Source: Macrostomum lignano (lineage: Eukaryota). Taken from it: a stretch of DNA of 64,000 nt. The notes beneath the pieces were generated by a model. It saw nothing but the letters and a program-made list of their open reading frames with translations. It was not told the DNA's origin and ran no database searches. Of the stretch, positions 7,061-9,049 are shown one piece after another; the stretch's first letter is position 1, and each line of letters begins with the position of its first letter. The DNA lies in the NCBI GenBank assembly GCA_002269645.1, contig NIVC01001666.1, forward strand, positions 1 through 64,000, read 5' to 3'. Position numbers and translations under genes: made by a program.

Positions 7061-7555
7061 TCAATTTCGGGGCTTATATACCCTCGACCGAACCACCACA
7101 AACCACCCATCCCACTCCGGGCTCTGTGATTGGCTCTTTCGCAAACATCGCTTGCAGTTCTCACTTAAAACCTCATGGGGTGTAACCTTGAAGACAATGC
7201 TGTGGTGGATATTCATCACTGTTCCCCACCACTTTGCTTCGACACGAATCTCTTCTCGATGACATACAACCATTTTCCCATTGAATGTTTGCGTATTCGG
7301 CTTAAATATCGTAAAGTTATTGTGCTCTGCACTATTCTGGTTCCTTTTTAATTCTGGACAGGTGATTTCTTCTGGAAATCGGAATACCTGCTGTCCGACC
7401 GATCGGTCACAGACTAGTCCGTAGGTCATTTGATTCGACGCAGAGCCTTGCAACTCGGTCTCGGCCCGAACTCCTCCTAGGCTTAAAAGCATGAAGACGA
7501 AAAGGAAAATTATCTTCCATGACCATCGCTCCGCTGTCCGAGGTTTCATTTCCAT
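7061..7555 (-). pseudogene. Truncated herpesvirus-gB-like class III fusion glycoprotein (env)
   Basis: Signal peptide MEMKPRTAERWSWKIIFLFVFMLLSLGGVRA, then LVCDRSVGQQVFRFPEEITCP...IFKPN...VEAKWWG. This parallels HSV-1 gB [21 protein letters not shown]...VFKEN...VSQVWFG (recalled sequence), with identical C-x16-C spacing. The ORF stops after only about 130 aa of ectodomain. Confidence 0.7.
7073..7133 (-). promoter_or_regulatory. Candidate promoter of the PC4-like gene (CCAAT box and TATA box)
   Basis: On the minus strand, CCAAT at 7133-7129 and TATATAAG at 7080-7073, about 50 nt apart and about 105 nt upstream of ATG 6968. Confidence 0.5.
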
Positions 7556-7726
7556 GACGTTAATTTCTGGGAACTCAAGAAGCTGAAGTTCCTCATTACC
7601 ACCGGTCTGCTCATACTCATGCGCAGAATCTGTTCCTCCGACTGCACTTTGCGCGTCAACCACATTCACTCCTGCTCCTCTTCCTCTTCCGACAGTTCCT
7701 CGGCCTCTATTGATTTGTCCTCTGCT

Positions 7727-9049
7727 TCAGTATCGTCCGCCTCGTCCACGATTTCCTCGACCATATCCTTGGTTGTTGGCAAAAGATCCTCTGTTCCAAT
7801 ATCCTCTTGGGTTTCCTCCTTGGCCTCGATTTCCTCTTCCTCGATTCCACTGATTTTGAGGATTAAATCCTCGAGGCTGCCATCCTCTTGGGTTTTGCTG
7901 ACCTCTATATTGGTTTTGCCAGTGGTTCTGCCATCCATTGTCTCTAGGATGGCTGTACGTCCATTCTCTCCGTTGACCTCCAGCATTGCCATCCATCTGC
8001 AAGGCCATTACCTCTAGTTTCTTATTGATGCTGTCGAGTTGAGCTTCTGTCTCCGTCCTAAGTGGCTCGACCGACTCGAAGTGGTTTGCTCGGCTTAGCA
8101 ATTGCTGGGTAGTCTGGATATTTTCCTCCAGTAGTTTGTTGCGGAGATAGATGCGCGAATTACTAATTGCATACCGCACGACCAACTTTTCGGCCTGTCT
8201 TCGCATTAATTCGCGATTCCCTTCCGCGCCTGGTTCAATTCCTTCTGCGTTCACCATTTTCTGAACAAGTTGACGAATATCGTTGTAAAAGTGCATGAAT
8301 TTCTCGCCTTCCTTTTGCTTTCTAGCTGTTAACTGGGTCATTGTGACAACGTCGTTAGGAGCGTAATTTCGCATTTCTTCCTTCAGTGCTTCAGCCATGT
8401 GCGCATAAGTAGCTTTCCTTTCATTCGGAATCGCTCTATAGATCTCCATCACTTGTCGTTCAAGAAAGAATGGAAAAATTCTTAGTTTATTTGCAGCCGT
8501 TACATTGAAAACCTCAGACGCTGTATCAAAGTCGTCCAAAAATTTGGCTACATCTCCAAAAAGTGCAAGTGGTTTGACCATCTTTTCCATTGCAGTGATC
8601 GTTGATCCGATTCCTGCTGCCATTTCGGCGTCGTCTCCTCCACCTGCTCCTGCTTCTGGTTGTTCGTCCACTTCTGCTTCTTCTGTTTCTTCTGGTTCGG
8701 CTTCGTCTGTTTCGACTTCAACCTCTTCTTCTTCTTCTTTTTCTACCTCTATTTCTTCTGTTTCGACTTCGGCTTCGGATTCTCCTATTTCTTGATCAGC
8801 TCTTAGATTGCCTTGATTCTGATTTCTTCCTACTATGTCGTTAAATTCACTTGTGAAATCTCCAGAACCTGTTTCTGTCACTAATGTTTCCAGCAATGAA
8901 TTTCTAACACTTTCTGATGCGGCGGAGTCTTCTACCAGCGTGGAGTTTATCTCACTCTCTATTGCTTCTTCGTTTATATGATCTACTTCTGATATTTGAT
9001 CAGAGCTCTTCGGGGACTTTTTCTTATTTCTTAACCAATAGCTTGCCAG
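7727..9049 (-). CDS. gag: Retrotransposon Gag (acidic N-terminus, CA-like domain, Q/N- and RGG-rich NC-like tail without zinc knuckle)
   Basis: FLDDFDTASEVFNVTAANKLRIFPFFLE...YRAIP...YAHMAEALKEE...QLTARKQKEGEKFMHFYNDIRQLV is a Retrotrans_gag-like pattern. The frame is open upstream to a TGA at 9059-9061, including a YWLR motif. No in-frame ATG upstream of the acidic region; CTG at 9049. Confidence 0.8.
   Translation of the reverse strand: MASYWLRNKKKSPKSSDQISEVDHINEEAIESEINSTLVEDSAASESVRNSLLETLVTETGSGDFTSEFNDIVGRNQNQGNLRADQEIGESEAEVETEEIEVEKEEEEEVEVETDEAEPEETEEAEVDEQPEAGAGGGDDAEMAAGIGSTITAMEKMVKPLALFGDVAKFLDDFDTASEVFNVTAANKLRIFPFFLERQVMEIYRAIPNERKATYAHMAEALKEEMRNYAPNDVVTMTQLTARKQKEGEKFMHFYNDIRQLVQKMVNAEGIEPGAEGNRELMRRQAEKLVVRYAISNSRIYLRNKLLEENIQTTQQLLSRANHFESVEPLRTETEAQLDSINKKLEVMALQMDGNAGGQRREWTYSHPRDNGWQNHWQNQYRGQQNPRGWQPRGFNPQNQWNRGRGNRGQGGNPRGYWNRGSFANNQGYGRGNRGRGGRY

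Follow-up and report, generated by a model that had tools for sequence, protein, structure and literature searches.

Structure of the locus

The stretch of Macrostomum lignano DNA analysed here (64 kb, called the window throughout) carries on its minus strand a truncated retroelement. It is best explained as a Ty3/gypsy LTR retrotransposon bearing a gB-type env, of which the window contains the 5' part. Its features are listed below in the order in which they are read on the minus strand, with the basis of each assignment in brackets:

9785 to 10662, minus strand: 5' LTR, 878 nt, with the ends TATAAG...CTTATA (ends, satellite edge, contig exits, depth)
9771 to 9782, minus strand: primer binding site of tRNA-Arg type, 2 nt after the LTR (match by eye)
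8624 to 9058, minus strand: acidic N-terminal gag extension, 145 open codons without an ATG (open frame)
7991 to 8623, minus strand: predicted Gag capsid domain, starting at the first ATG, 8623 (ESM Atlas, phmmer, weak fold matches)
7667 to 7990, minus strand: Q/N/W-rich, then RGG-rich nucleocapsid-like tract spanning the TGA (sequence composition)
7727 to 7729, minus strand: TGA in the gag frame, within the RGG tract and with AGC as the next codon (sequence read directly)
7556 to 7726, minus strand: 57-codon open linker with the end of the RGG tract, a GVN motif and an acidic spacer (frame analysis)
7469 to 7525, minus strand: putative hydrophobic signal or first membrane segment of Env (hydropathy)
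7146 to 7465, minus strand: N-terminal ~105 aa of an Env ectodomain, putatively gB-like (class III fusogen) (PDB sequence matches, relatives)
7146 to 7148, no strand: point at which the retroelement meets a Polinton-like block, with a 3-nt overlap (contig exits and loose ends)

The LTR ends form a 6-bp terminal inverted repeat of the TA..TA rather than the TG..CA type. The outer end was set only by this repeat and by the edge of a 16-bp satellite (10662-11734) which the LTR abuts; at the inner end, contigs of two sequencing runs (X11 and X17) depart from the window sequence at 9785. Read depth in run X1 was about 28-78 in the element interior and about 160-380 over most of the LTR, and no second LTR was found within the window. 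In both X1 and X3 the depth of the LTR was roughly ten times that of the interior, an excess that suggests many solo LTRs or related families. The reverse complement of the primer binding site matches, by eye, 11 of 12 letters of the tRNA-Arg(UCG/UCU) 3' ends given in supplement 1 of PMC13524379.

Other parts of the window hold a MITE-like pair of 259-nt inverted repeats (51881-52578; 96% complementary, 180 nt apart), a 27-bp tandem array (57700-60000) and many other simple repeats. Putative host exons occur at four places and show resemblance, by eye, to a RING/SPRY protein (14143-14859), a tyrosine-phosphatase-like protein (24650-25831), a homeobox (39645-40322) and a thioester/alpha-2-macroglobulin-like protein (59961-63335).

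Coding regions on either side of the TGA

On the minus strand, the frame ahead of the TGA is open from 9058 to 7730, with its first ATG at 8623, and is terminated by the TGA at 7729-7727. The 145 codons preceding that ATG are open where the other two frames hold 14 and 8 stops. This extension is opened by a CTG at 9049 (9049-9047, minus strand) whose context is favourable (A at -3, G at +4) and which is a possible non-AUG (CUG) start of gag, or else may mark a second lesion; contigs of runs X1 and X3 show no differences over this stretch.

By similarity, the ORF ahead of the TGA is assigned to Gag. Its top match in the ESM Atlas was Retrotrans_gag (0.92), and all ten of its best family matches belonged to one family or clan. 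When the capsid region was used as a phmmer query, 1.84 billion representatives yielded ten hits at the threshold of E<=0.001, three of which pass Pfam's own Retrotrans_gag cut-off. Pfam run on the window gag returned weak unrelated hits only and no direct gag hit, and a PDB sequence search with gag gave no match. An AlphaFold model, built from a two-sequence alignment, was poor (mean pLDDT 40.6); with this low-confidence model Foldseek found no match at E<=0.001, its top rows being the capsids of MLV, Arc and RSV at E 0.04-0.1. The Q/N/W- and RGG-rich tract at 7667-7990 contains no CCHC motif and occupies the place of the CCHC knuckle present once each in two relatives, P0001 and P0002 (see below); its composition would suit an RNA-binding role.

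Behind the TGA, 171 nt (57 codons) remain open in the gag frame and reach an ATG at 7555, past which the same frame runs on to a stop ending at 7061. The ATGs at 7555 and 7549 lie 8-10 codons before a hydrophobic 19-mer (7525-7469, mean KD 1.83), with putative cleavage by signal peptidase as judged by eye. The ORF after the TGA resembles the beginning of a gB-type fusogen. With the env fragment, the PDB gave 19 hits at E<=10, every one of them a herpesvirus gB aligned at the start of the ectodomain, although each was weak (E 0.5-1.6) and the hits are not independent; they are consistent with the gB type at a level below significance. The only PDB match of a later Env stretch in P0002 was MHV-68 gB (E 0.02). 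The env fragment itself gave no Pfam hit and no usable ESM Atlas hit, and the structure model was too poor over its env part. Word-indexed protein searches returned nothing at E<=0.001 with gag (among proteins of 523-2000 aa), with the env fragment (241-2000 aa) or with the Env region of P0002 (30-1567 aa); as proteins over 2000 aa are invisible to both the gag and the env search, these two results are no evidence against a fusion.

Gag and env are joined in a single frame

As the preliminary description had stated, gag and env share one frame split by a single UGA, with 57 open codons behind it over which the RGG pattern continues. The RG-rich pattern persists for about 20 codons beyond the TGA, and glycine codon bias is alike on both sides, with GGA used for 11 of 14 glycines before and 6 of 7 after it. 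Since the RGG pattern and the codon bias are the same on either side, the TGA appears as an interruption of one tract. The other two frames of the linker contain 1 and 8 stops. Of 20,000 mononucleotide shuffles, 3.1% left the linker open, as did 6.5% of 20,000 dinucleotide Markov simulations; together with a match to the env frame (1 in 3), chance would give this arrangement in about 1-2% of cases, and an open linker in a frame shared by gag and env is more than chance. The GVN motif of the linker is also present in the related proteins P0015, P0002 and P0012, in the latter two before the signal segment, and is absent from P0001 and P0003.

In agreement with the preliminary description, gag and env have no pol between them in the window: tblastn with the full polyprotein of a relative gave two hits, gag and env, and no match to PR, RT, RH or IN over the whole 64 kb. 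Use of a different genetic code seems less likely; the remaining long ORFs of the window give normal translations under table 1, and the TGA site is explained more simply by the sense codon that a sister contig carries (see below).

Relatives encode Gag and Env without a stop

The three best of the ten Gag hits are long proteins in which Gag is followed by a hydrophobic segment with no stop between them. P0001 (727 aa, 29% identity) consists of Gag, knuckle, linker, hydrophobic segment and the start of Env. P0002 (2852 aa, 26-27% Gag identity; 26% over 193 aa) continues in the order Gag, knuckle, linker, hydrophobic segment (659-677), Env, transmembrane segment (1483-1501), PR (1626-1705), RT, RH and IN, and the best PDB match was Ty3 Gag-Pol. 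P0002, P0011 and P0012 (PAA86625.1, PAA47950.1 and PAA87129.1) are Macrostomum lignano proteins of 2852-2859 aa, each a single Gag-Env-Pol chain, named only as hypothetical or as RNA-directed DNA polymerase, and the cluster mates of P0002 are near-identical over their full length (99.97% and 99.5%) on different contigs. A Thr-rich tract was observed within the Env region.

The window env matches P0001 and P0002 directly behind their hydrophobic segments (pairwise E 2e-6 and 4e-6), and none of 300 shuffles attained its score against either protein. The env sequence was absent from the phmmer query by which both had been found. Identity to the Env start of P0002 was 20% over 80 aa. P0001, P0002, P0011 and P0012 likewise have a single hydrophobic segment between Gag and Env; such a segment follows Gag in P0003. 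The latter, a further Macrostomum lignano protein, combines Gag, the hydrophobic segment, a transmembrane segment and pieces of PR and integrase with laminin, and is visibly a chimeric gene model, probably over a related element inside a laminin gene; it gave no match to the window env at E<=0.01 and has no Met in the 60 residues preceding its hydrophobic segment. P0002 and P0003 are both annotation products. The other seven of the ten Gag hits (182-608 aa) had no env match at E<=0.01 and are uninformative either way, and no loci giving the DNA context of P0001 or P0004 were found in viral or metagenome contigs.

In the nearest informative relatives, as predicted from their annotated sequences, gag and env are thus one ORF with pol after env. 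None of the continuous relatives had pol at the point between gag and env, an arrangement which, according to the preliminary description, would mark the in-frame join as a chance deletion product. Because the P0002 family continues from Gag-Env into PR-RT-RH-IN, pol would belong after env in the family of the window element also. As Gag identity is only 25-29%, the continuous relatives set the deep ancestral state and not that of the window's own family.

The env truncation and the adjoining block

The window env is cut off at 7146, after about 137 codons, a truncation left unmentioned in the preliminary description. Element contigs of X1, X3 and X11 continue past this point for 1392, 1392 and 2132 nt, respectively, outside the window sequence. 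For X11, the 30 letters displayed beyond 7146 keep the env frame open and, by eye, agree with the Cys-Trp pattern found at that place in P0001 and P0002. The contigs of the Polinton-like block have loose ends behind 7148 in all four runs examined, and none of the 32 listed pieces, of 403 in all, bridges the join. The join is either a private deletion with a 3-nt overlap or a misassembly; whichever its origin, the retroelement is longer than the window shows. Because env is truncated at 7146, the lack of pol in the window is uninformative on the intact element.

The block at 79-7100, also on the minus strand, reads as Polinton/Maverick-like. It contains PC4 (E 4e-8), a weak A32-like ATPase and an integrase plus chromodomain that is divided between two frames near 5520-5576. 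A pair of overlapping ORFs at 2302-3655 resembles one gene in two frames, presumably the capsid gene of the block. Read depth of X1 at 6639-7055 was about ten times that of the retroelement interior.

The TGA is present in some copies and absent from others

Other copies were sampled as contigs of four runs (X1, X3, X11 and X17) among 24 listed; X11 and X17 are guessed to be RNA, and X17 covers 22 of 30 bins. A contig of X1 matches the window letter for letter over 7146-8519, which takes in the TGA, and a contig of X3 carries the TGA over 7649-8125. In X17 the TGA lies 7 letters from a contig end at a depth of 3.9, below the tool's bar. X11, in contrast, yielded a 4840-nt contig, about 99% identical to the window over 7146-9857, with a sense codon at the TGA site, far from the contig ends. 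The preliminary description had left it to other genomic copies whether the TGA is fixed: the codon recurs in X1 and X3, and marginally in X17, but the sense codon of X11 shows that it is not fixed, and neither P0001, P0002, P0011 nor P0012 has a stop at this place. TGA is the commoner state, firm in two of the four runs and marginal in a third, these coming from three different studies, whereas the sense codon rests on one contig of one run and could itself be the derived state.

Over 7146-9857 the X11 contig (depth 11.7) differs from the window by 28 substitutions and 4 gaps. The coding comparison covered at most 19 of these 28 substitutions, as displayed, and none of the gaps; 12 of the changes were coding. 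Besides the stop, these were 2 synonymous and 9 non-synonymous differences, compared with a neutral expectation of 2.35 synonymous (P of <=2 = 0.57). The nonsense share of random changes is 5.3%, so that 12 changes would include at least one stop 48% of the time. The coding differences fit neutral decay, eleven being too few for a strong test of selection.

The TGA contig of X17 has one allele in common with X11. In X3, two alleles occur at 8126 yet a single TGA path over 7649-8125, so that more than one haplotype or copy may carry the TGA. Such a spread would be accounted for by allelic or homeologous copies of a single insertion, by a trans-mobilised defective copy or by a functional stop.

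Interpretation of the in-frame TGA

We consider it likely that the TGA is a nonsense lesion in a copy of a GAG-ENV-POL errantivirus-like element that encodes one polyprotein. The preliminary description had already named a nonsense mutation in an ancestral gag-env-pol polyprotein as one possibility, and both the continuous relatives and the sense codon in X11 support it. In an intact element, the ribosome would make cytosolic Gag first; the internal hydrophobic segment would then thread the Env ectodomain into the ER, with cleavage by signal peptidase, and a second membrane segment would anchor Env and return the chain to the cytosol for PR-RT-RH-IN, to be released by the element's protease. 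A layout with two membrane segments is seen in P0002; the topology and the cleavages follow general knowledge of viral polyproteins. The TGA would have arisen by point mutation in the window copy or in a small group of near-identical copies, presumably from a sense codon such as that of X11. It would trim about 20 residues of the RGG tract and disconnect Env and Pol, leaving a non-autonomous copy.

Programmed readthrough, in which a leaky UGA near the end of gag yields abundant Gag and a small share of Gag-Env-Pol from one RNA, appears rather improbable. The TGA was seen in three of the four runs, possibly on two haplotypes, and the X1 contig bearing it continues 1392 nt past the point where the window env breaks off. 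The position of the stop near the gag end would suit control of a ratio, and a Gag:Pol need of 20:1 is given in PMC2194720. However, a 99% identical contig has a sense codon, the continuous relatives do without the stop, one of their families keeping near-identical intact copies that lack it, and the differences between copies look neutral. The codon context is not that of a classic leaky stop, in accordance with the preliminary description: the site reads TGA-AGC-AGA, with neither a C at +4 nor CAR-YYA, the motifs described in PMC2194720. No stable structure was predicted 3' of it, with folding no better than that of shuffled sequences (z +0.56 for 7740-7600 and -0.46 for 7726-7500), pseudoknots and long-range pairs being outside the model. 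The missing motif does not by itself exclude readthrough, since the text of PMC2194720 describes the UGA of Tca2 as bypassed although its flanks alone direct no readthrough. Readthrough keeps some probability because TGA is the commoner state among the four runs, but neither context nor structure provides positive evidence for it. Only with low probability, then, has the family gained a leaky UGA at which one readthrough event would set Env and Pol together against Gag, perhaps combined with a CUG start for Gag. Searches of open-access papers turned up no gag-env readthrough site.

It is very unlikely that Gag simply ends at the TGA and that env, together with pol, is expressed from a separate ATG (7555 or 7549) via a spliced RNA, an internal promoter or reinitiation. 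Lying 8-10 codons before the hydrophobic segment, these ATGs would provide a normal-looking N-terminal signal peptide, and a pyrimidine-rich stretch ending in CAG was noted by eye just upstream. Such a start, however, leaves both the open RG-rich linker and the contig with the sense codon unexplained, and P0003 offers no Met within 60 residues ahead of its segment. No splice joint was found within 7146-9857 in the four runs, two of them guessed RNA, in contigs that drop rare forms, and the contig of X11 is unspliced over this whole region.

That the locus represents a pol-less gag-env element, as the preliminary description had also proposed, or a chance in-frame join after deletion of pol from a gag-pol-env element, can be largely dismissed: the window holds no pol match and other copies could be read for just 30 letters beyond 7146, but the element continues for at least 1.4-2.1 kb past the break in the contigs of three of the four runs, the relatives share the Gag-linker-signal-Env join with pol after env, and elements of Platyhelminthes are reported in the main text of PMC13524379 as GAG-ENV-POL only.

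Comparison with known elements

Two in-frame coding regions split by one stop are also found in MuLV and Tca2, in which the gag-pol stop is read through and that of Tca2 is UGA (as described in the text of PMC2194720), and in SIRE1, where the stop between pol and env is suppressed (as described in PMC2829016). In these systems the stop is taken as a feature of the active element, accompanied in MuLV and Tca2 by a 3' motif or a pseudoknot. In the window element, in contrast, the stop separates gag from env and varies between near-identical sequences, and we found no such signal with it. In the nearest full-length relatives, Gag, a presumably membrane-threaded Env and Pol form one chain of 2,850 residues, which raises the question of how excess Gag is made; a sublineage that carries a stop would be an obvious place to seek an answer. 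Should readthrough occur, the TGA would be a recoding site governing Env and Pol together.

In the nematode elements of Sacco and colleagues, the genes reportedly form a continuous gag-env-pro-pol ORF. The term gag-env-pro-pol gave no match in the open-access papers searched. These endogenous retroviruses, which have env before pol (Sacco et al., 2022, as cited in PMC13524379), are like the window element in this order and differ in their nematode hosts. The accessible texts on Cer1 (PMC10309623) and on Macrostomum LTR families (PMC12801592) do not bear on the TGA.

P0002, P0011 and P0012 share with the window element a homologous Gag and Env start, a single hydrophobic segment between them and the GVN motif as a common feature. 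They differ in having no stop, a CCHC knuckle instead of the RGG tract and an ATG start, and the distance from the end of the capsid to the signal segment is about 310 aa, compared with about 180 in the window.

The closest known systems are the errantiviruses of Nematoda, Bryozoa and Platyhelminthes, which according to the main text of PMC13524379 (Chary and Hayashi) have only gB-type env and the order GAG-ENV-POL. The layout of the window element does differ from the usual gag-pol-env, as was pointed out in the preliminary description; the order itself, however, is already published there for flatworm, nematode and bryozoan elements. In that main text, the terms readthrough, read-through, fused, single ORF, frameshift, splic and polyprotein do not occur, and the layout of the ORFs may be given in its figures. 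Mlig_errantivirus_2, the only Macrostomum element in its lists, has 16 copies and a different primer binding site; because its site differs from the Arg-type site of the window element, the latter would represent another family. P0002 fits Mlig_errantivirus_2 in size, the two being likened by size alone (8,559 nt coding compared with 8,864 nt between the listed LTRs). Unlike the published elements, the window copy is broken: it contains a stop, its env ends prematurely at 7146 and the window lacks pol. It has a Gag capsid, an LTR with a tRNA primer site, and env directly after gag, all features of the GAG-ENV-POL errantivirus type; its env may be of the gB type, and pol follows env in its nearest full-length relative. 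The window element is probably a new family of GAG-ENV-POL errantiviruses, and would add to this errantivirus-like group a family that has an RGG tract instead of the zinc knuckle.
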